Source of the DNA: a virus
DNA: 64,000 nucleotides
Virus genome (UHGV): UHGV-1362809
Strand: one strand, 5' to 3'
Each line of letters starts with the position of its first letter. Within the stretch, counting starts at the first letter, position 1. Shown here piece by piece: positions 13,251 through 54,973 of this stretch. The notes beneath the pieces were generated by a model. It did not search any database, had not been told where the DNA came from, and saw nothing but the letters and a program-made list of their open reading frames with translations. Both the position numbers and the translations under genes were made by a program.

Positions 13251-13315
13251 TTAAATGTTGTAAATAACGATGTACAATATTGTACGAGTTTTTGCAAAAA
13301 CTTTGGAGTATAAAA

Positions 13316-14119
13316 ATGGCAAAATATATCATAAACAATGGGTGTGCGTACCCTTCTCGTCTGATTTCAAAAATCGAACCTTCTGTCATGGAAACGACGG
13401 TTAGATGTTCCTCGATTGATTTGCTTAATGTTAATCGTGCTTCCTATATTGACGTTGTTTTTAATGTGTATGTTGATGGGGTTAAAGGAGCTACGCAGTT
13501 TAGACACCCTGCTAATGGTTCTGTTGAATCCGTTTACTTGCCTGAGGATGAAGACTTCGTGGAATGGTTGTCGGAACAGCAGTTGAAAAGCGGTAAAGAC
13601 CCTATCAAAGTGTTCAAAAATGCGGTACTCAAAGTCAACCGTATCAAAATGGCTATTGCAGAATGTGAAAAGGCAAAACAGTCTAATGAAAAAATCGTTG
13701 AAACGGTTGCACCAGTTGTTCAGCAAGCAGAAGCTCCCGTAGCCGTTGACTTGAAGCCTCGTGTTGATGGCGAGATAGTTGACCTTGACGTAGCTTTGAA
13801 AGACTTGTCGGAAGAACCCGAACTGCTTTTTGAGCCGCAAATCGTTGCTCCTAAGTCTGAAACGTTTGTCAATGAGGAACTGGAAGAATTTAATCAGCCT
13901 ACTGTTTCTGACGAAGACATGCATTTGTTGCACAAGAAAACAGCTTTCATTGAAAAAATGACGGCTAACTATATCGCAGCGGTTAATGCACTTGAACCCG
14001 AAACCAAATTGATTACAGCAGTTGGTCGTAAACAGCCTGATGAGTTGACCGAATACGAAGAAACCATCGTTTCCTTAACGATGAAAGAATTTGCTGAAGA
14101 TTTATTGGGAGAGGTATAA
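13316..14119 (+). CDS. hypothetical protein (267 aa)
   Basis: ATG 13316 with ggagtataaaa upstream; the ORF track's 13280 start lacks an RBS. Confidence 0.55.
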   Translation: MAKYIINNGCAYPSRLISKIEPSVMETTVRCSSIDLLNVNRASYIDVVFNVYVDGVKGATQFRHPANGSVESVYLPEDEDFVEWLSEQQLKSGKDPIKVFKNAVLKVNRIKMAIAECEKAKQSNEKIVETVAPVVQQAEAPVAVDLKPRVDGEIVDLDVALKDLSEEPELLFEPQIVAPKSETFVNEELEEFNQPTVSDEDMHLLHKKTAFIEKMTANYIAAVNALEPETKLITAVGRKQPDELTEYEETIVSLTMKEFAEDLLGEV

Positions 14120-14362
14120 ATGACTCCTTATAAAGGTTGGTTAATAGCCCGAATGAGTGAGCAAGCTACAGGAGGCTTCATTGTACGTGGAGCCTCCCGA
14201 GGTTTGTTTGAGGGTAAAGTAGTGTCCATAGATGCAGACACTAAGGATATTAAAGTGGGTGATACAGTAGTGGCTCCGACGAATGAATGCTTTGAATATA
14301 GCCATCATTCGGAAGGTTTGTTGTACTTTGTACCTCTTAAGCATATCGTAGGTGTTGAATAA
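14120..14362 (+). CDS. groES: co-chaperonin GroES-like (80 aa)
   Basis: Size and pattern of GroES (mobile-loop-like TGGFIVRGASRG, KVGDTVV, C-terminal HIVGVE). Sits immediately upstream of the GroEL-like gene with a TAATG overlap. Confidence 0.7.
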   Translation: MTPYKGWLIARMSEQATGGFIVRGASRGLFEGKVVSIDADTKDIKVGDTVVAPTNECFEYSHHSEGLLYFVPLKHIVGVE

Positions 14363-15987
14363 TGTCACAGGTTATTTTAAGTGGAGACCAGAACAGAACT
14401 GAACTGTTGGAAGGTCTTAAAATTATGGCTGAAACAGTAGGTAGTACTTTGGGTCCTAAGGGTCTCAATGTTATTTTGCAAACTGAATTTGGTGCGCCCC
14501 ATATTACTAAGGACGGTGTTTCAGTCGCTCGTGAAATTAAACTCGATGGTGTGCAGGGATTAGGTGCATCATTGGTTAAGGAAGCTGCTAATAAGGCTGC
14601 TGTTGTCGGTGACGGTACGACTACAAGTTCTGTTTTGGCGTATGAAATTGCACGTCAAGGTATGACAAGCGCAGCCTATACCAACAAGTTTGGTATCAAA
14701 CGTGGTATTGAAGCAGCGTTAAAGGACATTGTGTCTAAACTTGAAGATAACACCATTCAAGTTAAAGATTCCAGCGACGTGTATAATATTGCGTTGGTAT
14801 CGGCTAATCATGATGAATCCATTGCTGAGCTATTTAAAAAGGCGTTTGAGTTGTCAGGCAAGGATGGTGTTATTGTTGTTCAAAAAACAAACAACTCTGA
14901 AACGACTTGCGAACGTGTGGAAGGTATGCAGTTTGACCGTGGATTTTTGAGGTCGATATTTATCAACGACTTTGAAAAACAGGAATGTCGCTTTGAACAC
15001 CCAAATATTGTGTTCGTGGATGGTAAACTCGACAGTCTGATTGAGCTTAGTACATTTTTTAATTCTAATGGAAAGGCTTTGGTTGAAAAACCATTGGTTA
15101 TTGTGGCGGAAGACTTCGATGCCCCTATCGTCGGCACCTTTGTTGAAAACCGTGTGCAGAGTGGTACGAGAGTATTGCTGGTTAAGGCTCCTGGATTTGG
15201 TGACCGTCGTAAAGACCACTTGGCTGACTTGTGTGCCTTTACTGGTGCAACCCTTATTTCTGAAGAGCAAGGTTTGTCGTTGGGTAAATGCACGATGGAA
15301 CACATGGGTCACTGCGATGTGTGGGTTTCGGACTTTGATAAGTCAACTATTCTTGGTGGTAAGTTTGATGAGACCCAGTTAGAAGATGCTAAAAAAGCTA
15401 TTCGTGGTCTTATTGAACGTGCTATTACCGACGTTGACCGCAATCGTTACAAAGAACGTTTGGCTCGTTTATCTGATGGTGTTGTTTCCATTTCGATTGG
15501 CGGTAATACCGATGTTGAAATCAAAGAGTTGTGCGACCGTATTGATGATGCCTTGTGTGCTGTAAAAGCTGCCGTCAAGGGTGGTTATACTGTAGGCGGC
15601 GGTATTGCACTTCTTAAAGCCTCGACTGAATGTGCTAATCCGTTTGACGTTGGCTCATCAGAACATATCGGCTACAACATTCTGCTCAACTGTTGTAAGG
15701 CCCCGTTGAAAAAGATTTGTGCTAATGTTGGTAATGACGATTTTACTCCCGACTATGTTGTTAGTACAGTGCTGCATAGCATAAAGAATGGACAGTCTAA
15801 TTTTGGGTTTGACGCAAAAGAGGAACACTTTGTTCAAAATATGCTAGACCATGGTATTATTGATCCAACGGACGTTGTTATCAGTAGTATCACCTGTGCA
15901 GTTTCCGCTTCTACTTTGTTGTTGAGTTCAGGATGCTCTGTACTACGACCCGAAGAAAAGAAGTGCGACTGTAAGTGTGGCAAGTAA
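14362..15987 (+). CDS. groEL: chaperonin GroEL-like (541 aa)
   Basis: Conserved Hsp60 blocks: GPKG(L)NV, AVVGDGTTTSSVLA (ATP-binding GDGTTT motif), equatorial and apical domain patterns. Confidence 0.9.
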   Translation: MSQVILSGDQNRTELLEGLKIMAETVGSTLGPKGLNVILQTEFGAPHITKDGVSVAREIKLDGVQGLGASLVKEAANKAAVVGDGTTTSSVLAYEIARQGMTSAAYTNKFGIKRGIEAALKDIVSKLEDNTIQVKDSSDVYNIALVSANHDESIAELFKKAFELSGKDGVIVVQKTNNSETTCERVEGMQFDRGFLRSIFINDFEKQECRFEHPNIVFVDGKLDSLIELSTFFNSNGKALVEKPLVIVAEDFDAPIVGTFVENRVQSGTRVLLVKAPGFGDRRKDHLADLCAFTGATLISEEQGLSLGKCTMEHMGHCDVWVSDFDKSTILGGKFDETQLEDAKKAIRGLIERAITDVDRNRYKERLARLSDGVVSISIGGNTDVEIKELCDRIDDALCAVKAAVKGGYTVGGGIALLKASTECANPFDVGSSEHIGYNILLNCCKAPLKKICANVGNDDFTPDYVVSTVLHSIKNGQSNFGFDAKEEHFVQNMLDHGIIDPTDVVISSITCAVSASTLLLSSGCSVLRPEEKKCDCKCGK

Positions 15988-16101
15988 TTTGCATAAAATA
16001 CTCTCAATGTAAATATTGTAAATAATCGTGGGTGTATGGTATATGCCTACAACATTTACTCCTTTTATGTTGTGTGTGAGTCAAGGGGTTGAAAATACCC
16101 C

Positions 16102-16146
16102 TTGACTTATTAAATAAGAGGTGGTATAGTATATACATAATCGAGG
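16102..16146 (+). promoter_or_regulatory. early-type promoter, copy 6, heading the RNA-rich region
   Basis: ttgact 16102-16107, 17-nt spacer, tatagt, then atatacataatcgagg. Confidence 0.6.
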
Positions 16147-16812
16147 TTGAAACGAGGTGCGAAGACCGAGTTAAAACCAGTTGACAATGGTCAAGGATTA
16201 TGGTATTGTAAATACACAATGCAACGAGTTGTTAGACACTGTTAATATGAACCCACAAGATGTAGTCAACCTTTTCGTGGTTTGTGGGATAAGTAAGTAC
16301 TGGGTTTCTTGTGTGTGATTTACCTCGCACGTCTCATACCGTACCGTGGCTGAAACTAATAGACTATTTACCTATGTAGGTGGGTAATGAGATACTATAA
16401 AGCCCTCGTTATGTTGTGCAAAGGGAGGGTGGATATACGTACTATTGGTGGAGTCAATGACGACACGATAACAATTAAGGCCTTATCATGAAGAGTGGCG
16501 CACTTTGTAATTGATGCTTGAGACTGTGAAACCTGTTTTACAATGTGTATCGCTTACAACATACGCATCGAGTTCGTGCGAGAGGTGAACATCCTCGGTT
16601 CACCAGAACTCACCCCTTTACGATTTAAAAATCGGTTGGCGGTTTAATCCCTCGACTCCTTTTATCAAGCGGAGGATTGTTGAAGTATGTAAAATACGGT
16701 CTAAGTACTAAACCATATTTTTTCTGTACTATATTATACGTGGATAAATGGAGCGTACCGAGTTAGTGCGTTAGGTAGAAATACCATAACTCTTCCTTTT
16801 GGTGGTCTAAAC

Positions 16813-16889
16813 CCCCTTGTAGCTTAGGCGGTTAAAGCAGTGGTCTTATAAACCAAAGAGCAGAGGTTCAAGTCCTCTCAAGGGGACCA
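16813..16889 (+). tRNA. tRNA with UAU anticodon (Ile-like), CCA encoded
   Basis: Manual cloverleaf: acceptor ccccttg/caagggg, D-arm gctt-aggcggtta-aagc, anticodon loop cttataa, T-arm agagg-ttcaagt-cctct, discriminator A plus cca. Confidence 0.6.
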
Positions 16890-16900
16890 ACAAACTTTAT

Positions 16901-16945
16901 GGAAACGTTGGTGTACAAAGTATAGGTTCGATTCCTATGGTTTCC
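16901..16945 (+). ncRNA. tRNA-like minihelix (acceptor-like stem plus T-arm, no D or anticodon arms), followed by T9 run
   Basis: ggaaac...tatagg-ttcgatt-cctat...gtttcc, then gttattgttttttttt; may act as a terminator or processing signal. Confidence 0.4.
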
Positions 16946-17358
16946 GTTATTGTTTTTTTTTAGTCTTGTTAGATACAATGCGAGTTTGGGCTCCTTTCAG
17001 TTGACGGAATGAGTGCTAGTATAATGTGGTTGCGATGCTGGTAAGACAGCGGTCCAGACTCTGTTTTCATTGTATAACGTTGTTTAATTATACCGTCCTC
17101 ATTCCGTCAGACCTGTAATGTAAGTACCTCCACGTGGTACAGGTTGGGTGCCTATTTTTAGGTAGCTAAAACTTACACACTCTTCTTTAAGTTGGTTAGA
17201 ACACCTGCTGGTTTACTTTGTGTTTGTCAGCAGGTTGACTGGTTGAAAGAACTGCCTCCTCGTGGCACCAGTCGGGTAGTGTGTTTTACACACGAGCTAA
17301 AAGTTCAAGCTTCAGACTGACGAGTCTGAATGATGATTGGATGATGAGTATATTATAG

Positions 17359-17441
17359 TGTTGCACGCCAAAGTGGAGAGTTGGCTGTTTCTAGATAAAC
17401 AGGGAAGCAATTCCTAATAGGTTCGATTCCTATTGCAACAT
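17359..17441 (+). ncRNA. type-II tRNA-like element, copy 1 (no encoded CCA, non-canonical anticodon loop)
   Basis: Acceptor tgttgca/tgcaaca, D-arm ccaa-agtggagag-ttgg, anticodon stem ctgttt/aaacag with 6-nt loop ctagat, variable hairpin ggaa-gcaa-ttcc, T-arm atagg-ttcgatt-cctat. Confidence 0.4.
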
Positions 17442-17447
17442 TATATC

Positions 17448-17528
17448 GAGTGCATTCCGTAGAGGTGAGACGGCTGTTTCTGAATAAACAGGGAAGCAAT
17501 TCCTAATAGGTTAAACCCTATCACACTC
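17448..17528 (+). ncRNA. type-II tRNA-like element, copy 2 (degenerate acceptor)
   Basis: Repeat of the previous element (ggctgtttctgaataaacagggaagcaattcctaatagg...), with only 5 of 7 acceptor pairs and a ttaaacc T-loop. Confidence 0.3.
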
Positions 17529-17805
17529 ACACCTTAGCTTCGAGGTCACCAAAGAGCAGTCGCACGACTTTAAACAGGGTATTTGCTTGATTCACCTAAG
17601 GAATGTAAATCAAGCGGTGGGTGTTTGACTACCATAAATCAACACAGCGTTTGTTGGCTATATATGCACGCACGTAGATAGTGATAAGATTACCGATGGG
17701 CAAGTGGTGATTGCTTTGTATGATTCGTAAATTCATACAGGGGTACTGACATACAGCCCCTTAACCGATGACATAGCAATATGATTGTCGTGTATGTCAA
17801 TTATT

Positions 17806-17839
17806 GGAGCGTTGGTAGAATGGTTATTACAACGGATTG
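17806..17839 (+). tRNA. tRNA-Ser 5' exon (acceptor, D-arm, 5' anticodon stem)
   Basis: ggagcgt (acceptor 5'), U8, 3-bp D-stem gta/tac with gaatggttat loop, acgga anticodon stem 5' strand. The complementary strands lie ~700 nt downstream. Confidence 0.6.
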
Positions 17840-18529
17840 AAAAGACTATGGGAAAATCTAAATTTATCTGTACTTATTGCGGTAAGGATTGTAAAAATTT
17901 AGGTGGACTTAATTGTCACGTCCCCTACTGTAAATTATAAAAATAGGGTGCCGAGACCCAGAAGCCCTTTAGCCCGCAGTAGAAAAGGTTGTATTCCTTG
18001 GAATAAGGGTTTAACAATGGCTACTTCTAAAATTGTTAAACGAGGGAGAGATAAACGGGTTAAACTTTATAGGGAAGGAATAATTGTTGGCTCTTTTACA
18101 GGTAGGCATCATACCGCCAAAACTAAAAGAAAAATGTCGAAAATTTGTAAACAAAGGCATTTAGATGGTTGGGATAATAAGGCAGGACGGTGTAAAAAGT
18201 ACAAGTATAAAAGTAAGTATGCTGGCTTAGTTACTTTAGACGGTACTTGGGAATTAGCTGTCGCACAATATTTAGACAAAAATGATATTCCTTGGAAGAG
18301 ACCTAATAAACGTTTTCCCTATAGATTTAGAGGAAAAAGTCGTACTTATAAACCCGACTTCTATTTAACTAAAAGGAGAACCTATATTGAAGTTAAAGGT
18401 TATCAAACATTAATGGATAGAGCTAAATGGAGAGATTTTCCTTATAGACTTCAAGTATGGAAAGCAGATAAACTTATTAAATTAGGCATTTTATAGTTGA
18501 ATGTTTAAATTGAAGTAGAGGATAGATTA
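17840..18529 (+). mobile_element. intervening sequence in tRNA-Ser: candidate group-I intron carrying an endonuclease ORF
   Basis: Separates complementary tRNA halves (7/7 acceptor pairs, 5/5 anticodon-stem pairs); contains the 197-aa nuclease ORF. Confidence 0.5.
17903..18496 (+). CDS. putative PD-(D/E)xK-type endonuclease within the tRNA intervening sequence (homing-endonuclease candidate)
   Basis: 197 aa with GTG start. C-terminal block RTYKPDFYL...RTYIEVKGY resembles a restriction-endonuclease-like fold (D...EVK). A 30-aa CxxC...CxxxxC ORF at 17848-17938 overlaps the 5' end in another frame, suggesting a frameshifted zinc-finger N-terminus. Confidence 0.5.
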   Translation: MDLIVTSPTVNYKNRVPRPRSPLARSRKGCIPWNKGLTMATSKIVKRGRDKRVKLYREGIIVGSFTGRHHTAKTKRKMSKICKQRHLDGWDNKAGRCKKYKYKSKYAGLVTLDGTWELAVAQYLDKNDIPWKRPNKRFPYRFRGKSRTYKPDFYLTKRRTYIEVKGYQTLMDRAKWRDFPYRLQVWKADKLIKLGIL

Positions 18530-18581
18530 CTAATCCGTCGTCCGAAAGGATGTGTGGGTTCGAGTCCTACACGCTCCGCCA
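18530..18581 (+). tRNA. tRNA-Ser 3' exon (3' anticodon stem, long variable arm, T-arm, acceptor 3', G73, CCA)
   Basis: tccgt; variable arm cgtccgaaaggatg; T-arm gtggg-ttcgagt-cctac; acgctcc pairs 7/7 with ggagcgt at 17806; discriminator G and CCA; matches tRNA-Ser architecture. Confidence 0.6.
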
Positions 18582-18914
18582 TATTACCTTTGGATTCATT
18601 TAAGGTCTGGTTATAGTTGGGTTGGTCCCCAACTTGGTACTAGATAAAGGCTGACATAAATCAGTATTGATATGTCCGTTGGTTGAAAGATTCCCGTTGT
18701 GATGACTGGAGTCGCCTTGATTGAGTCAATATATTGTGATTCTGTGTTTAAGGAATACAGCGTGGAAGCGTATGCCGCTATGCAACGACCTGTGGACAAC
18801 GAAAAGTGCCTTAAAGAGGATTAGTAAGTGCTGATGGTTTGGTAATTTGCACTTGGGAGTACTTTGTACGAGCAAACAACTGCCTATAAAAATTACCTGC
18901 AATTTTGACTATTT

Positions 18915-18991
18915 GGTGTCGTAGCTCAACGGGATAGAGCATAAGACTTCTAATCTTAAGGTTGGGCGTTCGAGTCGCCCCGACATCACCA
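18915..18991 (+). tRNA. tRNA-Arg (UCU), CCA encoded
   Basis: Acceptor ggtgtcg/cgacatc, D-arm gctc-aacgggata-gagc, anticodon stem taaga/tctta with loop cttctaa (UCU), T-arm gggcg-ttcgagt-cgccc, discriminator A plus cca. Confidence 0.8.
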
Positions 18992-19319
18992 AAAATTGGG
19001 TTGGCTACGTTAGCTCCCAAGTCATCAAAACGTGGCTATGTACTTGGTCAACGGGCATCAAGTAGGCTATGGTATGACGTGCCTTTACATACTCCTAATG
19101 CAATAATGGTGACTGTTGCGGGTCCGTCGTTAGGACCGTCTTCACAGGTAGCGCTGTAAACGACTATGGTAGAGAACTGCCCGTGATTTGACATCCAATA
19201 ATAGTACGTTAAGCTGTTAGTGCATTGTGTAATGCAGTGCAATAGTACAGGAGGGATGTTTTTTCTTTTCTTCCTCAGTTAGCTCTTTATAGTTTTCGGT
19301 TCCTGTGAAAAACTAATAT

Positions 19320-19402
19320 GCCCTTATGGTGAAATTGGTAGACACGCAAGATTAAGGTTCTTGTGCGAAAGCATCTCCGTTCGAGTCGGAGTAGGGGCAC
19401 CA
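19320..19402 (+). tRNA. type-II tRNA-Leu (anticodon loop ttaaggt read as AAG; possibly UAA), CCA encoded
   Basis: Acceptor gccctta/taggggc, 3-bp D-stem gtg/cac with 11-nt D-loop, anticodon stem caaga/tcttg, long variable arm gtgcgaaagcat, T-arm ctccg-ttcgagt-cggag, A73, cca. Confidence 0.6.
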
Positions 19403-19516
19403 TATTTATGGGGGCTCTGGTGAGTCTGAAACTTTAATTGTTGAACTCGAGCAACAAACTGTGACGACAAGATAACGGTTTTAATATTTGACCCAGATAA
19501 AGACCGACCCCACCGA

Positions 19517-19558
19517 TGCTCCTTATAGGTAGTTAGACAGTTCGATTCTGTCAAGGAG
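19517..19558 (+). ncRNA. second tRNA-like minihelix (acceptor-like stem plus T-arm only)
   Basis: gctcctt...acag-ttcgatt-ctgt...aaggagc. Confidence 0.35.
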
Positions 19559-19646
19559 CCTATTATACAGTTGCATAAAGCACCTGTTATAATGGTTAGA
19601 GGTGCGGTTATCCAAACCTATGCACCGATGTTTCTAACTCTAGTAA

Positions 19647-22368: not shown

Positions 22369-22845
22369 ATGTATACACTAAGAAAGCGACTGAAAGACGC
22401 ATGTATTGCGCACTGGTTGGGAAAGGATTATCCGAAGGCGTGCAAACACGTTCACGGGCACAATTACAGTTTTGAAATTGAAGTTAAAGGGGAACAGCTT
22501 AATCAGTATGACATGCTGATTGACTTTGGCGATATCAAAAAAGTGTGTGACGATTGGATTCAAACAAATTGGGACCACCATTTGTTGGTTTCTCAGCATC
22601 AGTATGACAATACACCATTCTTAAAGGAGTCGATGTTTGACCTGTACAAGATGCCTGGCGACGTCAATACTACGGCTGAAAATATGTCTAAATTCTTGTG
22701 TGAGTTGTTTACGAGTGAATTGGTAAAGCTTAATCCTTCGATTACACGGGTGTCAGTATCCGTGTGGGAGACTTCTGATTCAGTAGCCCAGTTTACTATT
22801 GCACGAGGACCATCTATAATAGCGACAATACCTTTCAGAATGTAA
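22369..22845 (+). CDS. queD: 6-carboxy-5,6,7,8-tetrahydropterin synthase-like (QueD/PTPS family)
   Basis: 158 aa; catalytic zinc/active-site motif CKHVHGHNYSFEIEV (C-x3-HGH); RBS ttaaggagaattaa-ATG. Confidence 0.8.
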   Translation: MYTLRKRLKDACIAHWLGKDYPKACKHVHGHNYSFEIEVKGEQLNQYDMLIDFGDIKKVCDDWIQTNWDHHLLVSQHQYDNTPFLKESMFDLYKMPGDVNTTAENMSKFLCELFTSELVKLNPSITRVSVSVWETSDSVAQFTIARGPSIIATIPFRM

Positions 22846-22907: not shown

Positions 22908-23336
22908 ATGACAAGAATAAATGCAGTACCCGTTGAAGAACTATCCGACCAACATTTAATTCGGGAGTACAATGAATTGCCCCGTTGTATCAAACAGCCT
23001 CTTAACATAAAGGACGCTCCTGATACTTATACCCTTGGCACAGGACACATGAAATGGGGTCGTAAACACTGGCACTTGCTACTTAAACGTTATGGACAGC
23101 TGTGTAAGGAACTTAAATATAGAGGTTTTAACACAAACTACACTGCCAAGTCTTTAAAGGATTTTTGGTACGCCACCTACCCAGATATTCCCTTAGTTAG
23201 ATATCGTTTTACTGAACAAGATATAAAGGTTAGTCGGCAACGTTTAAAAGAAAAAATTGCACTCAAACCAAATTGGTATCGTTGGACACTTCGACCTGTT
23301 CCTAAATATGCGCAACGATTGAAAAAGTGTGTCTGA
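22908..23336 (+). CDS. denV: pyrimidine-dimer DNA glycosylase (T4 endonuclease V/DenV-like)
   Basis: MTRINAVPVEELSDQHLIREYNELPRC is near-identical in pattern to the T4 DenV N-terminus ([27 protein letters not shown]); RGFN and WY motifs further on. Confidence 0.85.
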   Translation: MTRINAVPVEELSDQHLIREYNELPRCIKQPLNIKDAPDTYTLGTGHMKWGRKHWHLLLKRYGQLCKELKYRGFNTNYTAKSLKDFWYATYPDIPLVRYRFTEQDIKVSRQRLKEKIALKPNWYRWTLRPVPKYAQRLKKCV

Positions 23337-23499
23337 AATATGCCTGAAATGTGCAAATACAAATATTGTAAATAATGATAGTTTTGTATTGACAAATCAG
23401 TTCGGATATGATACTATTATACACAATCGAATGTTGGGTTTGTATCAACATAGGATAGCTTTCAATAATTTAATGACGATTGGGCTATTAAGTAATCTA

Positions 23500-23551
23500 A
23501 CACCTTGCTTAATGATTCATTCGTCGAGTTATTGAGCAAGGTGTTTTTTTG
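23500..23551 (+). terminator. rho-independent terminator
   Basis: acaccttgcttaat...attgagcaaggtgt 14-bp stem followed by ttttttt. Confidence 0.7.
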
Positions 23552-23566
23552 TTACAGGAGGTTTTA

Positions 23567-27972: not shown

Positions 27973-28551
27973 ATGGATTTACTAGCATATTTTATTGTGC
28001 AAGCTAGCCGAGGTGTTTCGAGAAAAACTTTTGATTCTTTTACTGTTAAGCAAAAGTTGGACTATTTTAAGTTATTTCCTACATCCTCTTATAAACCAAA
28101 GGTAAAAGACTGGGTGGCTAAATTAACTGCGAGGTCTTTTATGACTCTGTTAAAAAAGGCAAAGTTATCCCAGCTTCCCTTAGCAAGATGGTGTGTGTCT
28201 CTAGACCATGATTTTAACTATTATAGTAAGGGGACTACTTGGGGAACAAAAGGCGGTTCTACTTTTTCTATTGTGGATAAGGATATTGTTAGTCTCTGTC
28301 GTAATCGTAATGATCCCTATAGAGGTAGAGATTTAGTTAAATTGGCTGTTACTAAGGGAGGTAGAAAATTAGATGCCTATGGAGTATTATATAACCTCTA
28401 TACGTCCTGCGGTTTTCAGCCCGTGTGTATGGTTAGGTTTAATAAACAATATGCTCCTAATGACTGGTGTGAGGATTATGGTGAACCCCCCCTATTATTT
28501 TTTATAAATATAATACTAAATATAAACCTGTTCCCTATAGGGATTGGGTAG
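27973..28551 (+). CDS. GNAT-like acetyltransferase-fold protein with N-terminal extension (192 aa), paralogue of 43440/43600
   Basis: C-terminal KGGRKLDAYGVLYNLYTSCGF resembles the GNAT motif; N-terminal 65 aa is homologous to ORF 43440-43634 and the remainder to ORF 43600-44127. Confidence 0.5.
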   Translation: MDLLAYFIVQASRGVSRKTFDSFTVKQKLDYFKLFPTSSYKPKVKDWVAKLTARSFMTLLKKAKLSQLPLARWCVSLDHDFNYYSKGTTWGTKGGSTFSIVDKDIVSLCRNRNDPYRGRDLVKLAVTKGGRKLDAYGVLYNLYTSCGFQPVCMVRFNKQYAPNDWCEDYGEPPLLFFINIILNINLFPIGIG

Positions 28552-33411: not shown

Positions 33412-33413
33412 GG

Positions 33414-33441
33414 TTGACTTTTACCTTGGACGTGGTATAAT
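33414..33441 (+). promoter_or_regulatory. sigma70-like promoter
   Basis: ttgact, 16-nt spacer, tataat. Confidence 0.5.
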
Positions 33442-33486
33442 AGGTATATACAGTTGAAAATGACTGGTAATGATTGCGAGGTAGCT

Positions 33487-36875: not shown

Positions 36876-36876
36876 G

Positions 36877-37299: not shown

Positions 37300-37327
37300 C
37301 AGTGTACAGGCAATACTGTAAATAAAC

Positions 37328-38164: not shown

Positions 38165-38418
38165 AATACATTGTGTTGTTAGAGAATGATTACCCGCACG
38201 GGTATGGAGTAGTATGTCCTGACTTGCCTGGATGTGTTACTTGTGGTGACACTCAAAAGGAAGCGTTGAAAAATATGAAGGAAGCAATTACTTTGTATTT
38301 GTATGAAGAAACACCTCCTAAACCGAGTACTTTGGACGAAATTAAAACAAATTGGAACGATTGGGGCGATTGGAAAGCTCATCGTGACTTTACAGTAGAG
38401 GAAATTGACTATGAATGA
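38161..38418 (+). CDS. HicB-like (UPF0150) antitoxin-fold protein (85 aa)
   Basis: YGVVCPDLPGCVTCGDTQKEALKNMKEAITLYL matches the HicB family signature (FPDLPGC..G.T.EEA); no HicA partner visible. Confidence 0.6.
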   Translation: MKYIVLLENDYPHGYGVVCPDLPGCVTCGDTQKEALKNMKEAITLYLYEETPPKPSTLDEIKTNWNDWGDWKAHRDFTVEEIDYE

Positions 38419-43439: not shown

Positions 43440-43634
43440 ATGTATAAAGTGTTAGACCGTCTTATGTATAGTGTGGTCGGTAGAGGAGTATCTCAATCTA
43501 CTTGGGATAAAATGAGTTTACGAGATAAACAATCTTATCTAAGGAAGTATCGTAATTCCAAGTATAAACCCAAATATAAAAATTGGGTAATTCGTCCTTT
43601 TGCTGATATGTATAAATTTATTGAAAGTGTGTAA
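43440..43634 (+). CDS. N-terminal fragment of the GNAT-like paralogue (64 aa), frame 0
   Basis: ATG 43440 after aagggaggagatact; homologous to residues 1-65 of the 27973 gene. Confidence 0.4.
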   Translation: MYKVLDRLMYSVVGRGVSQSTWDKMSLRDKQSYLRKYRNSKYKPKYKNWVIRPFADMYKFIESV

Positions 43635-44127
43635 GCTTACACTCGCTCCAAAATATAGGTGGAGGGTAGACGATACGCATACTGTTGCGGACTATAATAA
43701 TGATAAATTGTTTTCCACAAAGGGTGGCAGTGTAGTAGCAGTAGACGCCGACGGTGATATTATTTCACTATGTAAAAATGATGGAGACCTTTATTTTGGG
43801 TCTGATATACTAAAAGTTGCTGTTAAGAATGGAGGTAAAAAGTTAGACGCCTATGGTGATAGTTTGTACGAGTTTTATACAAAAAATGGATTTAGACCTA
43901 TTTCTTGGACACCTTTTAATAAAGAGTACGCTCCTCACGATTGGGGAGAAGATTTTGGGGACAATCATCATATAATTTTTTATGTATATGACCCTAATTA
44001 TATTTGCACTAAAACATACGAGGAATTTTTGCAAAGTGTTCCATGTTGTAAATATAATGATGGTTATGAAAAGGCACGAAAAATAAGGGATGAATATCTC
44101 TTAACTATGGAGAATAATAATGGCTAA
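43600..44127 (+). CDS. C-terminal part of the GNAT-like paralogue (175 aa), +1 frame relative to 43440
   Basis: Homologous to residues ~58-192 of the 27973 gene (KNGGKKLDAYGDSLYEFYTKNGF); no ATG (TTG at 43600); overlaps the upstream fragment by 35 nt. Looks like a frameshifted single gene. Confidence 0.45.
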   Translation: MLICINLLKVCKLTLAPKYRWRVDDTHTVADYNNDKLFSTKGGSVVAVDADGDIISLCKNDGDLYFGSDILKVAVKNGGKKLDAYGDSLYEFYTKNGFRPISWTPFNKEYAPHDWGEDFGDNHHIIFYVYDPNYICTKTYEEFLQSVPCCKYNDGYEKARKIRDEYLLTMENNNG

Positions 44128-47100
44128 GGATTATAATGCCAATTCAATCAAAGTACTGGACTACCCCGTCTGTTGCCACGTTCGCCCAGGAATGTATATC
44201 GGCGATACAACGGCTCCCAAGGGTGGATACTGCGATGGTGTGTTGCAGTGTGTAAAAGAAGCTCTTGATAATGCGGTTGACGAGGCTTCAAACAAGTATT
44301 CTAATGTTGTCGGTTTTGTGGCACAAAAGGACGGTTCCTTTGTAATTTATGATACGGGACGTGGTATTCCTGTTGAAGTACACCCCAAGTTTAAAAAAGA
44401 AAAGAAGTCAACTTTGGAGGTTATTTTTACCGTGTTACACGCAGGCGGTAAAATGGACTCTTCCAATTATGATAAATCGGTCGGTCGTAACGGTTTGGGT
44501 ATTTCTGTCACAAATGCTTTAAGCTCTTGGTTTCGAGTTACAACGTGCAGGAATCGTAAATGGTATACCCAGTTGTACCAAGAGGGGTATGTTAAGTCTA
44601 AAGTGCGGACTACCGTAAATCCTTCTAAAAGATTGGGTATAAAAGTTTCTAAAGGCACAGTAATTGAATTTTTACCCTTGTCCAAGGTGTTTAAAGATAG
44701 TATCAAGTGCGATTTGTCTGCTGTTTTTAAATGGATGAAGTTTAGTCAATACCTACTTCCTGGGATTACATTCAAGTACGAAAATCGTCTAAAAGGTAAA
44801 AGTAAGGAATTTTGTTCCACCAAGGGCATCGAGGGATACCTTAATAAACTGTGTAAGGATATCGGTTCTGAGGATATTACTGACACTTTTACGCTAAGAT
44901 ATCCTACTATTGACTTGTCTCTTAAATGGGTAAAAAATGACGACTGTATCATAGAATCCTATGTAAATGGAAGCCCTACTCCTAACGGAGGTACACACGT
45001 CAATGGGTTGAAAAAAGCTCTTACTGCTTGCATTTCTAACTATTCCAAACGGTCAGACTCCTTTAAGCCCGACGATTTGTTAGAGGGACTGGTGTGCGTT
45101 TTAAACTACAAAATGGACGAACCCTTGTTCGATAGTCAGACCAAGACAAAGTTGGTAAACAAAGGTACGGTGGATGATTTACCTGCTGAGATTGAAAAAG
45201 ATTTGACTAAGTGGGGCAGAGCTAATAAACAGGCATTATTGGAGATTATTCAACGTGCTAACGATATTAGGGGTGCAAAATTACAGTTTGAACAGGCTCG
45301 TAAGGCTATTGCAGCTGTTAAGGGTAAACGAGGTAAATCGTCGCTTCCCCCTTCTTCCAAATTTTCAGTTTCCACGACCAAAAATGCAAAGGATAGAGAA
45401 CTTTACATCGTGGAAGGTTTGAGTGCGGCAGGTACGGCTAAAGCAGCTAAGGATCACCATTATCAGGAGTCGTTGGCTCTTCGTGGTAAATTTCTTAATG
45501 CTGAAAAAACAACTGCAAGTCGTTTGTTTGAAAGTGATGAAGTGCTTAATATACTTAAAGCGATTGGGTATAATTCTGACGATAAATCTATAACCTATCG
45601 TGTCGGTAAAGTAATTATGTTGAGCGATGAGGATGATGATGGTTGCTTGGATGGTAACACCCGTATTTTGACTTTGGACGGTAAAAATCCAAAAATTAAA
45701 ACTTTGGTGAAGCAGTATGAAAAGGATAAGAACCCTATTGAAGTATATTCAGTAGATAAAGATGGTAATTTGGTAGTAGGAAAAGCTATTGAACCTCGTG
45801 TAACTAGAACTGTCAACAAAATGATTAAACTAACTTTTGACAACGGTTCTACGGTTTTGTGTACGCTTAACCATAAGTGGCTTATAAATAATCCTTCTAG
45901 GAAAGATGATAGAGTTATTTGGAAAGATGGTTTGGGGTATATACAAGCTAAGGACTTAAAGGAAACAGATAGTATTCGTAGCGTGTATCTTGAAAATAGA
46001 CATTCAGATGGGTCTTTTGTTTCTAATAGATATAAGTGTATTATAAATGCTTCCTCACAGGGAAAATACTGTGATAGAGATACTATGCCTGTGCATCAAT
46101 GGGTTAAATGTTGTGAGCAAAAAGGTTGGAAAAAATATAGAAAGGCTGGTAGGGGTATAGCTATACATCATATAGACGAAAACCCACAAAATAATTGCTC
46201 GAGTAATTTAAAGTATTTAACCCAAGCGGAGCATGGTAAGTTGCATATAAAGGAGCAGTGTGAAAAATATAATGGGTCTCAAAAACAGAAAGATGATTTA
46301 GCTAAAAACTGGGCTAACGGTGTTTATGATAAGATAAAGGATACTATTATTATATATAATAGATCAAAAAAACACAGAAAGCTGGTAAGTAAAATGAATG
46401 GAGATAAGAACCAATGCTTCAGACAGGCTATGGGAAAATTAAAGAACTATTATTTAACATTGAAGCATAACCACATAAAGGTAAATAGAGATAATTGGAA
46501 TCTCTATGTGGGTAAAAAGGGAATAGGTGGTGTTATGACTTGGGAGCTCTTTCATTCTAAAGGTATAAAGTTAAAAGATATTAAAACTTTTACTAATATG
46601 AGAGAAAGTGTCCGGTTGTACAAGTTATCTACTGTGAAAAACTGTTATCCTACTCAAAAACTTACAAAGTTTGAGTCTTTTTGTGACTATTTAAAGTCCA
46701 AGGGGTTGTCCGTTAATAAAGCTACATATAATAAGATAAGGATAAAGCTTATTCGTAAAAAGAAACTTTCTCAAGGGACGCCTAAATGGGAAACAATAAA
46801 GAACCATAAAATTGTTAAAAAGGAAGTTATTAATTCCGAACAGGAAGTTTATTGTATGACTGTTCCTGATTATGGTAACTTTATGGTGGCGGATAAGTAT
46901 GGTAACGGAATTGGTAGTAGCAATAGTCATATTGATACTTTGGTTTGTACATTGCTACAAAAGTTATGTCCTGATTTAATTGAAAAGGGTATGCTGTACA
47001 AGGTAAAGGCACCTTTATTCGTTGGGAGAACTGACTCTACCCAATATTATGGTGCTAGTATGAATGACCTAAAACGGCAGTATAAAGGAAAGTTTAAGTC

Positions 47101-47281
47101 TATTACCCGTATCAAAGGTTGGGGAGAAGCCAGTGCATCTTTGTTAAGAGAAGTTGCCTTCGACCCTGCTACCCGTAAACTAATTCAAATAAAACAGAGC
47201 GACAAAAAGGGTATACAACAGGCTAAGAAACTTTTGGGTGACGACATCGAAGCTCGTAGACAGTTGTTAAGTGAGGAATAA
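44120..47281 (+). CDS. type II DNA topoisomerase large subunit (GyrB-like ATPase plus Toprim; T4 gp39/gp60-like) interrupted by an intein
   Basis: GyrB blocks RPGMYIGDT, LDNAVDEA, LHAGGKMD, GRNGLGISV, ELYIVEGLSAAGTAK. DEDDDG | CLDGNTRIL... ...GIGSSN | SHIDTLVCTLL: the extein junction recreates the canonical DxDxDGSHI Toprim motif. The intein (45644-46924, 427 aa) contains an HNH motif (HHID...N...H). Confidence 0.85.
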   Translation: MAKDYNANSIKVLDYPVCCHVRPGMYIGDTTAPKGGYCDGVLQCVKEALDNAVDEASNKYSNVVGFVAQKDGSFVIYDTGRGIPVEVHPKFKKEKKSTLEVIFTVLHAGGKMDSSNYDKSVGRNGLGISVTNALSSWFRVTTCRNRKWYTQLYQEGYVKSKVRTTVNPSKRLGIKVSKGTVIEFLPLSKVFKDSIKCDLSAVFKWMKFSQYLLPGITFKYENRLKGKSKEFCSTKGIEGYLNKLCKDIGSEDITDTFTLRYPTIDLSLKWVKNDDCIIESYVNGSPTPNGGTHVNGLKKALTACISNYSKRSDSFKPDDLLEGLVCVLNYKMDEPLFDSQTKTKLVNKGTVDDLPAEIEKDLTKWGRANKQALLEIIQRANDIRGAKLQFEQARKAIAAVKGKRGKSSLPPSSKFSVSTTKNAKDRELYIVEGLSAAGTAKAAKDHHYQESLALRGKFLNAEKTTASRLFESDEVLNILKAIGYNSDDKSITYRVGKVIMLSDEDDDGCLDGNTRILTLDGKNPKIKTLVKQYEKDKNPIEVYSVDKDGNLVVGKAIEPRVTRTVNKMIKLTFDNGSTVLCTLNHKWLINNPSRKDDRVIWKDGLGYIQAKDLKETDSIRSVYLENRHSDGSFVSNRYKCIINASSQGKYCDRDTMPVHQWVKCCEQKGWKKYRKAGRGIAIHHIDENPQNNCSSNLKYLTQAEHGKLHIKEQCEKYNGSQKQKDDLAKNWANGVYDKIKDTIIIYNRSKKHRKLVSKMNGDKNQCFRQAMGKLKNYYLTLKHNHIKVNRDNWNLYVGKKGIGGVMTWELFHSKGIKLKDIKTFTNMRESVRLYKLSTVKNCYPTQKLTKFESFCDYLKSKGLSVNKATYNKIRIKLIRKKKLSQGTPKWETIKNHKIVKKEVINSEQEVYCMTVPDYGNFMVADKYGNGIGSSNSHIDTLVCTLLQKLCPDLIEKGMLYKVKAPLFVGRTDSTQYYGASMNDLKRQYKGKFKSITRIKGWGEASASLLREVAFDPATRKLIQIKQSDKKGIQQAKKLLGDDIEARRQLLSEE
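45644..46924 (+). mobile_element. intein 1 (Cys1 ... Asn, followed by Ser) with HNH homing-endonuclease domain, inside the topoisomerase ATPase/Toprim subunit
   Basis: In-frame 1281-nt insert beginning CLDGNTRILTLDG and ending GNGIGSSN before SHI; interrupts the conserved DxDxDGSHI motif. Confidence 0.75.
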
Positions 47282-47282
47282 A

Positions 47283-49763
47283 ATGAAAAAAGCACAGAAT
47301 GTTATCACAGATTATAATTCCTTTGTTAGAAGCAGTTATAAAAGGTATGCAATTAGTGTATTGAGCGACCGTGCGTTACCAGATTTTCGTGACGGTTTGA
47401 AGCCCGTTCAGAGAAAAATGTTGTGGACTGCCTATAAACTTGGTCTACATAATAACAAGGCTTTTACAAAATGTACGAATATTACTGGTAATTTGATGGC
47501 TCGTTTTTCCCCGCACTGTTTAGACGGTAATACTCAAATACCGTTATTAAACGGGGAAAAAATTAAATTAAAGGATATGGATTATAATAAAGTTTATGAT
47601 GTTCTTTCAGTTGACGAAAGCGGTAAAATAGTTGCTGCTAAGCTTTCAAAGGCTCGTAAAGGTAAAATTGTTGATAAAGAATATCATATCGTATTGTCCA
47701 ATGGTACAGTACTACCTTATTGTTCCAACAATCACCAGTTTTATATGGGTAATTCCACTTGGAAGAGGGCAGACGAAATACAGGTTGGAGATGAAGTGTA
47801 TGGAGGGACTTGGCTCTTTGAACAGGATTATTGTCCTATCGTAAGTTATTCTTCAAATAGTAAAAATACGAGAAGAACTGGAGTACATAGAATAGTTGAC
47901 TTCACTTACAGAGGTATTCTAAATAAAACTAATGAGAATACTGGGGATAAGTTACAAGTTCATCATAAGGACTTAAATACCCGTAATAATTTAATATCTA
48001 ACTTGAAAAGACTATCTTATAATGACCACATGAGATTACACAGTAGTTCTGGAGGTAATACTGTTAATGAAGTATTAAGGTCTTCAAAACGAGTAGTAAA
48101 AGCTAATAAGGAAAAAAATTCCTTTTTACTCTCAAGTTATAATAAATACAGATGGTTATATGTAGCCATTAAAGCAGTTAAAATTTTAAAGGAGAATAAA
48201 CTTCCCCTTACATGGAAAAACTATGATAGTTTAAGAACTAAGATACGAGGTTTGACCCTAAAGACCACGTTGCTTGAAAGGGGTTGGGATTTAAAAAGAC
48301 TATACAAAGAAAGAAATTGGACTTTTGATAAAACACCAATTCTTGGAAAAGTAACAAGAGCCTTATTAGGAAATAATAAACGACATCCCTATGAAGGAAA
48401 AGGCTACGGTTGGAGTAAAGGTTTAAGTCATAATTGGAATAACAGTAACATTAAACCAAAACTCTATGTAAAAGAAATAATAGTTAAAAAAGTAAAAAGA
48501 AAACAACTCTATGACTTTACTGTTAAAAAGCATCAAAATGTTTTGATTATTTTGGGAGATAACAAGACGTTTATTTGTGCCCATAATAGTGATGCCTATG
48601 GGGTGCTGGTTAATTTGACTGGTAATAGCGTAAAATTCAATCTTTTTGAAGGAAACGGGAACTTTGGTAACTACATTGACGAAGCTGCCGCACCCCGTTA
48701 TACGGAAGCCAAATTAAGTAAGTATAGCGACGACTTTTTGTTGAATCAGAACTATTTGGAAGTGTGTAAAATGCTTCCAAACTATTTGGACACCGAGGAA
48801 GAACCTATGTTGTTACCCTCCTTGTTGCCTGTGTTGTTTTTGATTGGATGTCAAGGTATTGCGGTAGGTTATAAAACTGAAATTCCAACCTTTACTCTTA
48901 AGTCTCTTATAAAAGTTGTCAAAAAAGGGTTGGTCAAAAAACTAAAAAGTAAGGATTTACTGTGTTTAGAGTTTGATGACATCTATAACGCTCAGTATGT
49001 TGGGACTGACCAGCAGTTGTTGGATTATTATACTTCTGGTAAGGCAGCCCTACCTTTTAATGTATTCTATAAATTGGATAGCACTAAATCATTTACTATC
49101 AATTCTATCATAGGAAATGGGGAAACTATGATTAACAAGATAGAATCTGACGATAGGGTTTATCAAGTAAATGATTTGACAAGTGGCAACGACATCAAAA
49201 TACAAGTTGTGTTGAAGCCTTCTATAGCCAGTAAGGACGTGAAAAATGTAGCTGCTGATATTGTGGCTAAGTTAAAAATAAATAGAATATTTATTACAAA
49301 CGTTATCAAAAGAGTTGTTACTGAACAAAAGGACGGAGACCATACGTTTTATGACGAGGGTGCGGTCTTAAAAGAGTCTAACCCAGTTGACTTGCTCAAC
49401 GAATGGATTAAATGGCGTGTTGAACTTGAAGTAAAGATGCTTAACAACCAAGTATCTAAGACAAATGACAAGGTAAACCAGTTGGAGTTTTATCGTTATT
49501 TAATTTCTAAATTAGATATTATCTTTAAAGTACTCAAATCGAAAACAAATGATTTGAAGGGAGCGATGAAGAAGGCTCTTAAGTGTACCGATGACCAAGC
49601 TCAAACGGTGTTAGATATGCCTGTTAGACGGCTGAGTAAATTGAGCGACGACGAGTTAAAGGGACAAATTAAGGACTTACAGCAGTATTCAAAGGACTGT
49701 AAAAAATGGTTGAAAAAACCACAAGATAAAATTTTGCAAGATTTGAACAAGGTAAAGGTGTGA
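47283..49763 (+). CDS. type II DNA topoisomerase DNA-cleavage subunit (GyrA-like; T4 gp52-like) interrupted by an intein
   Basis: RYAISVLSDRALPDFRDGLKPVQRKML (GyrA signature); ...MARFSPH | CLDGNTQIPL... ...FICAHN | SDAYGVLVNL...GNGNFG: extein junction recreates the HPHG(D)SAVY...GNFG block. ATG 47283 (gaggaataaa) preferred over 47271. Confidence 0.85.
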   Translation: MKKAQNVITDYNSFVRSSYKRYAISVLSDRALPDFRDGLKPVQRKMLWTAYKLGLHNNKAFTKCTNITGNLMARFSPHCLDGNTQIPLLNGEKIKLKDMDYNKVYDVLSVDESGKIVAAKLSKARKGKIVDKEYHIVLSNGTVLPYCSNNHQFYMGNSTWKRADEIQVGDEVYGGTWLFEQDYCPIVSYSSNSKNTRRTGVHRIVDFTYRGILNKTNENTGDKLQVHHKDLNTRNNLISNLKRLSYNDHMRLHSSSGGNTVNEVLRSSKRVVKANKEKNSFLLSSYNKYRWLYVAIKAVKILKENKLPLTWKNYDSLRTKIRGLTLKTTLLERGWDLKRLYKERNWTFDKTPILGKVTRALLGNNKRHPYEGKGYGWSKGLSHNWNNSNIKPKLYVKEIIVKKVKRKQLYDFTVKKHQNVLIILGDNKTFICAHNSDAYGVLVNLTGNSVKFNLFEGNGNFGNYIDEAAAPRYTEAKLSKYSDDFLLNQNYLEVCKMLPNYLDTEEEPMLLPSLLPVLFLIGCQGIAVGYKTEIPTFTLKSLIKVVKKGLVKKLKSKDLLCLEFDDIYNAQYVGTDQQLLDYYTSGKAALPFNVFYKLDSTKSFTINSIIGNGETMINKIESDDRVYQVNDLTSGNDIKIQVVLKPSIASKDVKNVAADIVAKLKINRIFITNVIKRVVTEQKDGDHTFYDEGAVLKESNPVDLLNEWIKWRVELEVKMLNNQVSKTNDKVNQLEFYRYLISKLDIIFKVLKSKTNDLKGAMKKALKCTDDQAQTVLDMPVRRLSKLSDDELKGQIKDLQQYSKDCKKWLKKPQDKILQDLNKVKV
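47517..48587 (+). mobile_element. intein 2 (Cys1 ... His-Asn, followed by Ser) with HNH-like motif, inside the GyrA-like subunit
   Basis: In-frame 1071-nt insert beginning CLDGNTQIPLLNG (same N-terminal block as intein 1) and ending ICAHN; contains HHKDLNTRNN...HMRLH. Confidence 0.7.
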
Positions 49764-49764
49764 C

Positions 49765-50097
49765 ATGAATGTAAAAGAACAACAAGAAAATCTTATTGAA
49801 CAATTAGCTGATGCCTTAAATAAATATGATGGCATCGACGCGGATATTAACTACGTTGCTGAGGAGGGTAAAGGCACTATTATATTTTATGTAGAAAATA
49901 TGGAACATCTAAGGCAGTTTTGTACTGATGTAAAAGACGCTTTGAGTGCCGTTTTTGTTATCAGCTATTTATACTACGATGACACTGAGACTGATAAACT
50001 TGGTTTTGCTCTTGAGCCTAAGTGTCGTAATCCAAAGGTTTTTGAGGAATCTGTAAATAACCTTATAAATGCAATAAAAAAGGTGACGGAGAAATAA
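49765..50097 (+). CDS. hypothetical protein (110 aa)
   Basis: ORF. Confidence 0.45.
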   Translation: MNVKEQQENLIEQLADALNKYDGIDADINYVAEEGKGTIIFYVENMEHLRQFCTDVKDALSAVFVISYLYYDDTETDKLGFALEPKCRNPKVFEESVNNLINAIKKVTEK

Positions 50098-54272: not shown

Positions 54273-54284
54273 TGGGAGGTCGGT

Positions 54285-54863
54285 ATGATTAAGAAACGTT
54301 TGCTGCGTGCAATTTTAAACTCCGGCGTATCCGCTTGGAAGGAATTTAGTTATGACCAGAAAAAGGTAGCAATTTTAGAAGTTACTCCTTTTGACTACAA
54401 TACTAAATACGCCTTGGTTCAACTTCCTTCTATTGAAGTTGGTAAGGACGCTGTATCTTTTAACTTAGACATCAAAGGAAACTTTATAGATTTCGGAATG
54501 TTGTTTATACGCAATTCTGAATTAGTCAAGTTAAGCATCAATGATGGTGTCGCACACCTTGAACAGGTGGACATTAAAAAGAGTCCTGTTTTGGTTATAG
54601 GTAGAGGTAACACTGAACAGGAAATTGACAGTGTGGAACAGTTGTCAATTTCCGAAGGTACTGTTTTGACACCTATTGCTGGTGTTAAGTTTAAAACTTC
54701 TATTCCCACTATAACTCTCGGTATTAAAATTGCGGAGTCAAGTGATGAAGAAGTGGTGGACCCTGTTCAACCACAGCCAGAACCAGAAGAACCTGCAAAG
54801 GAAGAACAACAAACTGAAGAAGTTGTAAACCCTGTTGACTTAGAGTTCCCAACAGAGGAATAA
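54285..54863 (+). CDS. paralogue sharing the N-terminal module of 53046, with acidic Pro/Glu-rich C-terminus (192 aa)
   Basis: MIKKRLLRAILNSGVSAWKEFSYDQKKVAILEVTPFDYN versus MKKRLLKAVVRSGVSSWKLFDYDDKKSQIKAVTPFNYL. Confidence 0.55.
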   Translation: MIKKRLLRAILNSGVSAWKEFSYDQKKVAILEVTPFDYNTKYALVQLPSIEVGKDAVSFNLDIKGNFIDFGMLFIRNSELVKLSINDGVAHLEQVDIKKSPVLVIGRGNTEQEIDSVEQLSISEGTVLTPIAGVKFKTSIPTITLGIKIAESSDEEVVDPVQPQPEPEEPAKEEQQTEEVVNPVDLEFPTEE

Positions 54864-54874
54864 CTCCTTACTAC

Positions 54875-54907
54875 GGGGTGCGTGAAATTCACGCACCCCT
54901 ATTTTTG
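54875..54907 (+). terminator. rho-independent terminator
   Basis: ggggtgcgtgaaattcacgcacccc followed by tatttttg. Confidence 0.7.
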
Positions 54908-54973
54908 TCTTGATTTTTACCCTGTTTTTTAGTATACTGTAAATAGTAATAAGTTGACAAAAGGAGTATGACT

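Follow-up and report, generated by a model that had tools for sequence, protein, structure and literature searches.

A sharp, strand-specific intergenic 8-mer as candidate core of a single-element promoter in an uncultured gut jumbo phage

The 8-mer TGTAAATA recurs on one strand in the gaps between the genes of the viral metagenomic contig UHGV-1362809, and we read it as the core of a promoter that is specific to the phage and consists of one -10-type element. Signals of this kind are known, whereas the sequence is new; the promoter reading is given an even chance of being correct. The recurrence is non-random, biased in strand and position, sharp, conserved in relatives and free of a partner element. 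The analysed stretch, referred to as the window, comprises the first 64 kb of the 237,166-bp contig (JGI 3300045988 Ga0495776_003993), and window coordinates equal contig coordinates. The European Nucleotide Archive (ENA) assembly of the same genome (k119_39996) is permuted by 9,094 bp. Intergenic counts were made on a composite of 82,960 nt, consisting of 9 kb upstream (L008), the window and 10 kb downstream (L004), of which 8.5 kb is non-coding. Thirteen exact copies were present in the window, 12 on the + strand and one on the - strand, compared to 6.6 expected, and one of 100 window shuffles reached that number. Over the whole window the enrichment is modest (about 2-fold), and the signal became sharp after location and strand were added. 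In the composite, the + strand carried ten intergenic copies, two across a stop codon and four in coding sequences (CDS), the - strand none in intergenic DNA and two in CDS. With an earlier gene list, nine strictly intergenic copies were observed versus 0.61 expected from a first-order Markov model, and no 8-mer exceeded six intergenic copies in 300 Markov samples. Among the commonest intergenic 8-mers, TGTAAATA stood alongside terminator tails and Shine-Dalgarno (SD) words. Outside the RNA region downstream of the GroEL gene, the end of the motif was at most 70 nt away from the next start codon for 10 of 13 copies (background 10.8 %, binomial P = 4e-8). Equal frequency in coding DNA or on the - strand, which an earlier note on this stretch had named as evidence against its promoter proposal, was not what we found, and the enrichment upstream of start codons that it anticipated is present.

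One-mismatch variants of the motif showed neither intergenic nor strand enrichment in the composite (11 intergenic occurrences on the + strand, 9 on the - strand), so the element is unusually sharp. The flanking bases are merely preferred, with a consensus of T-R-T-TGTAAATA-A, and the invariant core is TGTAAATA instead of ATTGTAAATAA, which the earlier note had put forward. Its five copies (at 13259, 16017, 23367, 37317 and 54938) were all recovered in place on the + strand; the list was incomplete, lacking those at 12372, 16008, 16207 and 63184, the CDS copies at 35705, 44047 and 50052, and the - strand copy at 7926. The 16-mer that it had described as common to two copies is real: AAATATTGTAAATAAT occurs at 16011-16026 and 23361-23376, with 0 expected. 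The copies at 37317 and 54938 read CTGTAAATA, and those at 16017 and 37317 resemble each other (TGTAAATAAnCnTGGGTG). Apart from the 16-mer pair and the latter resemblance, similarity among the sites ends at about 13 nt, and an extended repeat or mobile element was rejected. Duplication was also rejected as the source of the motif shared upstream of a 267-aa and a 264-aa protein gene, the two proteins not being paralogues. A literature search for TGTAAATA as a phage promoter found nothing relevant.

The contig looks like an uncultured jumbo phage of the gut with a genome of about 237 kb. All coding open reading frames (ORFs) are on the + strand and encode, among others, GroES, GroEL, an NAD-dependent ligase, intein-bearing GyrB and GyrA, ThyX, a dCMP deaminase, a DNA methylase, QueE, QueD, an S-adenosylmethionine (S-AdoMet) lyase, a Tad2-like, a HicB-like and a sigma-70-family protein. 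Many gaps contain textbook promoters of the Firmicutes type, TTGACA-N17-(TRTGn)TATAAT, and the AGGAG SD sites are strong; a sigma-A-type host polymerase is therefore presumed, and from these promoters and SD sequences the host was judged to be of the Firmicutes type. A near relative of the genome was not detected by megablast in INPHARED (50,697 phage records), nor were close or distant relatives in IMG/VR, JGI metagenome contigs and GTDB genomes. Diverged relatives were recovered by protein homology and contig look-up: L015, L016 and L024 (GroEL 58-59 % identical), L017 and L018 (sigma factor ~70 % identical), L020 (ThyX 85 % identical) and L022 (ThyX 55 % identical, the most distant). The contigs L012 and L004-L007 were left out of the footprinting, since an identity of 94-98 %, and 98 % in non-coding DNA, makes them uninformative, and L025 (P0007) was dropped after its locus proved bacterial.

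As judged by sequence comparison, the motif is conserved in diverged relatives. In the gap upstream of the orthologues of the 267-aa gene (13316-14119), the longest word common to three lineages, L015 and L016 included, is AATGTTGTAAAT; upstream of the orthologues of the 264-aa gene (37370-38164) it is TGTAAATAAACA, again for three lineages, with L017 and L018. At the latter site, the stretch from the motif at 37317 to the ATG is conserved, and the stretch from the preceding stop codon to the motif is unalignable. The non-coding regions after GroEL (1.8-4.1 kb) of four lineages have no more than four words of at least 9 nt in common, one of them being TTGTAAATA. Two further sites have the motif in L020 as well: at the first an SD-less ATG follows 6 nt later, and at the second a hairpin with one compensatory change. 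A functionless by-product of composition, arising from AT-rich intergenic DNA and stop-rich words (TAAATAA stops two frames), is strongly disfavoured and retains the slightest of chances. The word TGTAAATAA has TAA at bases 3-5 and 7-9 with one frame left open, so it is depleted in coding DNA, two copies merely contain the stop codon of the upstream gene, and the enrichment over the whole window is no more than about 2-fold. Composition does not produce 9-10 intergenic copies from a Markov expectation of 0.6, nor intergenic DNA in which the reverse complement is missing, nor the longest common word in orthologous gaps of diverged lineages.

The copies in the window, the adjoining hairpins and the sigma gene are the following:

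12372-12379, + strand: copy across the TAA stop of gene 11291-12376, ending 25 nt before the QueE-like ATG 12405
13259-13266, + strand: copy 8 nt past the QueE stop; ATG 13316 of the 267-aa/GroES/GroEL operon follows after 49 nt
13272-13285, + strand: small palindromic hairpin GTACAATATTGTAC, beginning at the 6th nt after the 13259 motif
16008-16024, + strand: tandem copies (16008-16015 and 16017-16024), 20 and 29 nt past the stop codon of GroEL, at the start of the non-coding RNA region
16028-16050, + strand: hairpin of -8.7 kcal/mol, beginning at the 4th nt after the 16017 copy
16207-16214, + strand: copy overlapping the -10 hexamer TATTGT of a sigma-A-type TTGACA-N17-TATTGT at 16181-16209
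23367-23374, + strand: copy 30 nt past the stop of 22908-23336; the -35 of the sigma-A-type promoter 23389-23417 follows after 14 nt
35705-35712, + strand: CDS-embedded copy, next start 229 nt away
36246-36875, + strand: phage sigma-70-family gene, 209 aa, start confirmed by orthologues
37317-37324, + strand: copy 17 nt past the stop of 36808-37299; the 264-aa gene has its true ATG at 37370, 45 nt after the copy
37329-37345, + strand: hairpin beginning at the 5th nt after the 37317 motif, kept in L017 and L018 via G-U wobble changes
44047-44054, + strand: CDS-embedded copy ending 65 nt upstream of the GyrB ATG 44120, present in L017 too
50052-50059, + strand: CDS-embedded copy ending 38 nt upstream of ATG 50098
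54938-54945, + strand: copy past a strong terminator, overlapping the last -10 base of TTGATT-N17-TATACT (54910-54938)
63184-63191, + strand: copy made by the Cys-Lys-stop end of gene 62899-63192, ending 19 nt before ATG 63211
7926, - strand: sole - strand copy in the window

The copy at 54938 ends 22 nt before the ATG 54968 of the Tad2-like gene, and from that at 16207 it is 55 nt to the conserved word ACCTTTTCGTGGT downstream. The copy at 63184 was kept in L020, where coding constraint is a confounding factor. Of the CDS-embedded copies, the one at 44047 is possibly an internal promoter and the one at 35705 probably incidental. The composite site 65348 is a candidate for a leaderless mRNA, since the 7th base after its motif opens an ATG that lacks an SD, here as well as in L020. 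A terminator directly followed by the motif, an order that favours a promoter, was seen at 54938 and in L015 (11377). The motif was also amplified locally: L018 contains three tandem units of 22 bp at 1523-1590 (GTGTAAATC.., GTGTAAATC.., GTGTAAATA..), and the two copies at 16008-16024 of the window are 9 bp apart.

The motif behaves as a single element. No positional k-mer upstream was present in more than 5 of 17 sites, and among dyads over all gaps TTGA..TATA (sigma-A) alone rose above the shuffle level. At 12372, 54938, 63184 and 65348 the start codon follows 6-25 nt past the motif and leaves no space for a downstream -10; therefore the motif is not a -35 or activator box for such a -10. 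A -35 or a MotA-type box was rejected also for want of a common downstream -10. As a -10 or extended -10 of sigma-A the motif fails, no alignment to TGnTATAAT keeping both A-11 and T-7, with 2-3 of 6 hexamer matches in the best register; the genome's own sigma-A promoters read TATGgTATAnT. A bipartite promoter of an extracytoplasmic function (ECF) sigma factor (-35 of the AAC type, -10 of the CGT type) was rejected, no conserved element being present 16-20 nt downstream or upstream. CcpA cre sites and the -10 elements of sigma-K/E/G/H did not fit on inspection. The absence of a partner element agrees with the -10-only style of T4 late promoters to which the earlier note had likened the motif.

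We infer that the motif acts as a promoter in the DNA, and likewise the location of its start and the choice of its sigma factor. Downstream of the motif, the context is start-site-like: 9 of 13 copies have T as the 5th base, and 9-10 of 13 have a purine as the 6th or 7th. Such a Y(-1)/R(+1)-like step would place the motif at about -13 to -6, with transcription from about the 6th base downstream. The promoters would stand alongside or downstream of host-type TTGACA-N17-TATAAT early promoters and would serve middle-class genes and the RNA cluster, i.e., QueE, the 267-aa/GroES/GroEL operon, the 264-aa/HicB-like operon, probably GyrB, and the genes of the Tad2-like protein, an M78-like peptidase, a primase and a MoxR-like ATPase. 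Recognisable genes downstream of the motif are QueE, GroES/GroEL, the RNA cluster, GyrB, the Tad2-like gene, primase and MoxR-like ATPase; several others are unannotated, and no match to a structural family was found among the scanned downstream proteins of the accessible 83 kb. Of the middle/late regulon suggested in the earlier note, the middle part is consistent with this inventory of replication, chaperonin, RNA and anti-defence functions. Among the operons headed by a motif copy are those of the Tad2-like (Thoeris anti-defence) gene 54968-55183 and the HicB-like antitoxin gene 38161-38418.

The holoenzyme would probably consist of the host core RNA polymerase and a phage-encoded specificity factor, for which the sigma at 36246-36875 is the sole candidate seen. 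Its assignment to the motif is plausible but tentative, and overall more probably wrong than right. The proposed link between the two comes from their co-occurrence in two lineages and from elimination, no other class of non-sigma-A promoter having been seen in the 83 kb. Region 2 is clear in the protein (Sigma70_r2, E = 2e-10), region 4 is weak (E = 0.03), and a C-terminal helix-turn-helix (HTH) was predicted. NCBIfam returned a generic sigma-70/ECF superfamily model, followed by SigK and RpoH models far below their cut-offs. The AlphaFold model (predicted local distance difference test score, pLDDT, 69) consists of two helical domains with ~40 disordered residues as a linker between them, and it matches chains of sigma-32, sigma-S and sigma-A. 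The label ECF-like, under which the gene was first noticed, is fair for a real gene with this two-domain architecture, and the protein belongs to no defined group. In a tblastn search against the 50,697 phage records no match to the phiEco32 group was obtained, and similarity to cultured phages was limited to a weak match in Bacillus BCP8-2. Between the sigma gene and the sigma-A-type promoter upstream of it, in the 33412-33453 gap, neither a promoter nor a terminator was recognised, so early expression of the gene appears plausible. The motif copy at 37317 is the first after the gene block that holds the sigma gene.

Several observations weigh against a promoter. The sigma4-like HTH usually implies a -35, and none was found, a mild objection. 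L022 lacks the motif at the primase site, the second of the further sites of L020. At the composite sites -4853 and 66546 the motif is situated just upstream of a strong hairpin and a T-rich tract, an awkward arrangement for a promoter unless the hairpin is a 5' stabiliser or leaky. A sigma-A promoter precedes the motif by 30-40 nt in L015 and L016 and would carry it into the transcript, therefore an RNA role is possible there; the arrangement could represent tandem promoters or a transcribed motif. Elements of sigma-A promoters are overlapped by the copies at 16017 (-35), 16207 (-10) and 54938 (-10), the first through its TTGTAA, a possible weak -35 to the TGgTATATG that follows 18 nt further on. 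The overlap with stop codons (63184 and 12372) or with a sigma-A -10 (16207 and 54938) means that some of the copies may be incidental.

The same overlaps bear on an operator, at which a DNA-binding regulator would act, either a phage protein that represses or activates the early sigma-A promoters or a WalR-type response regulator of the host, whose sites are TGTWAH repeats. We consider this distinctly improbable. The three overlapping copies would suit it, as would the copy at 23367, whose distance of 14 nt to the -35 is roughly that of an UP element or activator, the tandem at 16008/16017 and the three 22-bp units of L018. The placement relative to sigma-A promoters is nevertheless inconsistent (overlapping, upstream and downstream), at least six sites have no such promoter, and the strict single-strand polarity comes without a dyad or repeat partner at most sites. 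WalR binds two TGTWAH half-sites 5 nt apart. TGTAAA in the motif fits one half-site, but the pair at this spacing was not seen; a WalR/YycF box was rejected, with a single half-site at most sites and a spacing of 3 nt in the tandem 16008/16017.

An RNA-level signal is the main and a serious rival, although unlikely in our judgement: UGUAAAUA in a polycistronic mRNA would be read by a sequence-specific endoribonuclease or RNA-binding protein of phage or host, e.g., by an enzyme of the RNase Y type that cuts after the G where an AU-rich stretch adjoins a stem-loop, and the downstream mRNAs would be hairpin-capped, leaderless or translation-controlled. Strand specificity, intercistronic position and conservation fit this equally well as they fit a promoter, no terminator separates most copies from the preceding stop codon, and in L015 and L016 the motif lies inside a transcript. 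Hairpins of at most -5 kcal/mol start 4-7 nt after the motif in 5 of 13 copies versus 16 % of control positions (Mann-Whitney P = 0.023), a weak association, and two of these hairpins were kept by wobble or compensatory changes. On the other hand, the copies at 16207 and 54938 sit on a sigma-A -10, so most of the motif is upstream of the start of that promoter, and 54938 and L015 11377 follow terminators and hence would be poorly represented in RNA. Sites of host RNases are degenerate, whereas the 8-mer is exact here, and no RNA-binding or nuclease family was present among the ~95 window proteins scanned. The eukaryotic PUF/Pumilio response element UGUANAUA is the identical 8-mer; Pfam scans of the window proteins, which covered all but ~27 ORFs (20 proteins and those of <60 aa), revealed no PUF domain. 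A phage-encoded RNA-binding protein or endoribonuclease that reads exact UGUAAAUA, cuts or marks the sites between cistrons and so programmes the mRNA processing of a regulon, is quite unlikely in this gut jumbo phage.

Returning to the promoter, two phage systems with a single element can be compared. T4 late promoters consist of a near-invariant TATAAATA at -13 to -6 without a -35, served by gp55 together with gp33 and the gp45 clamp. The motif shares with them the length of 8 bp, the AT-richness, 7 of 8 bases, the near-invariance, the absence of a -35 and an inferred start at the 6th base after the element. It differs by a G for A at the second position, and none of the recognisable genes served in the accessible 83 kb is a late structural one; TATAAATA itself is not enriched in the composite (one intergenic versus six CDS copies). 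The sigma here is a two-domain protein and not gp55-like, and it is not known to be coupled to a gp33 or a clamp. No gp55 or gp33 family was detected among the scanned window proteins, where the sole sigma seen has the sigma4-like HTH. The holoenzyme of phiEco32 gp36 uses a single highly conserved element, tAATGTAtA, without a -35 and with starts 6-8 bp downstream (PMC8948821; PMC12276001); the missing region 4 of gp36 has been given as the reason for the missing -35 (PMC8948821), and the middle and late promoters that depend on gp36 coexist with host sigma-70 early promoters (PMC8948821; PMC12276001). Shared features are the single sharp element, the TGTA core, a phage protein of the sigma-70 family and sigma-A-type early promoters in the same genome. 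The starts 6-8 bp downstream in phiEco32 have a possible counterpart here in the Y/R step at the 5th-6th base, in the SD-less ATG at the 7th base of site 65348 and in the hairpins that begin at the 4th-7th base. The systems differ in the element (TGTAAATA versus AATGTATA), in the Firmicutes-type host and in the sigma4-like HTH, which gp36 lacks; a gp79-like factor was not identified here. By analogy, the gp36 promoter is a closer precedent than the T4 late promoter.

Phages of Gram-positive bacteria provide a further comparison. SPO1 uses host sigma-A promoters early and then phage sigma factors (gp28; gp33/34), whose middle and late promoters are bipartite (-35, -10). The phage described here is similar with respect to a presumed Gram-positive host and sigma-A-type early promoters, and different in that no second element is detectable. 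On the SPO1 sigma cascade, see also PMC13401047. The extended -10 of Firmicutes (TRTGnTATAAT) can act without a good -35 and is used by the genome's own early promoters; TGTAAATA does not align to it.

Four of the sigma-A-type early promoters, at 1620-1642, 5661-5685, 9555-9576 and 16119-16142, have a common -10 and initial transcribed block (TATGgTATAgTATATACATAATC), whose presence in L015, L016 and L024 as well suggests that selection extends past the -10 hexamer. About 80 nt beyond the sigma-A-type promoter 23389-23417 comes a terminator with a 20-bp stem (23499-23545), and then the gene at 23567; the stretch 23418-23566 may correspond to a small RNA or to a leader of the attenuator type.

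The RNA region (15988-19646) extends over 3.7 kb after GroEL and is nearly devoid of coding sequence; one ORF was kept (17903-18496, 197 aa), which was also called in L001. Its counterparts are L015 10125-14238, L016 4139-6895 and L024 2081-3860. The region contains tRNA-Ile(TAT) at 16813, a tRNA-like element at 17358, tRNA-Arg(TCT) at 18915 and tRNA-Leu(AAG) at 19320. Two of its words, ACCTTTTCGTGGT (16269) and CCTCCTCGTGG (17255), resemble the anti-SD CCUCC and are conserved in four lineages. An Rfam search of the region yielded two tRNAs and nothing else, and the region may hold novel structured RNAs.

The S-AdoMet-lyase-like and QueE-like radical-SAM proteins (11291-13250) and PTPS/QueD (22369-22845) point to a 7-deazaguanine modification of the DNA. 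In a variant still more speculative than the mRNA-processing regulon above, the single G of the motif (TGT context) would be modified by this pathway and the modified base would be part of the promoter signal. Inteins are present in GyrB (44120-47281, with an HNH domain) and GyrA (47271-49763); the GyrB orthologue of L017 has 626 aa and no intein. Two apparent paralogue pairs have no assigned function: the tandem genes 10579-10914 and 10931-11257 encode similar proteins of ~110 aa, and the distant genes 27973-28551 and 43600-44127 have a ...KGGS...LDAYG... core in common. A direct repeat with 78 % identity connects positions 2763-2948 of L008 with 1-186 of the window; in the ENA permutation, the L008 unit precedes the window start by ~6.3 kb. 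A duplicated gene start is one possibility, a repeat close to the assembly break another.

If the motif is a promoter, it would supply a ready transcription map for an uncultured human-gut phage family with genomes of ~235 kb, in which host-type early promoters are combined with one sharp phage class. A very divergent sigma factor and an 8-bp element would then form a testable pair, with a sigma that has a sigma4-like domain and is able to act without a -35. The element would add a third sequence type to the single-element phage promoters, besides those of T4 gp55 and phiEco32 gp36. The motif is useful for operon annotation in related metagenomic contigs.

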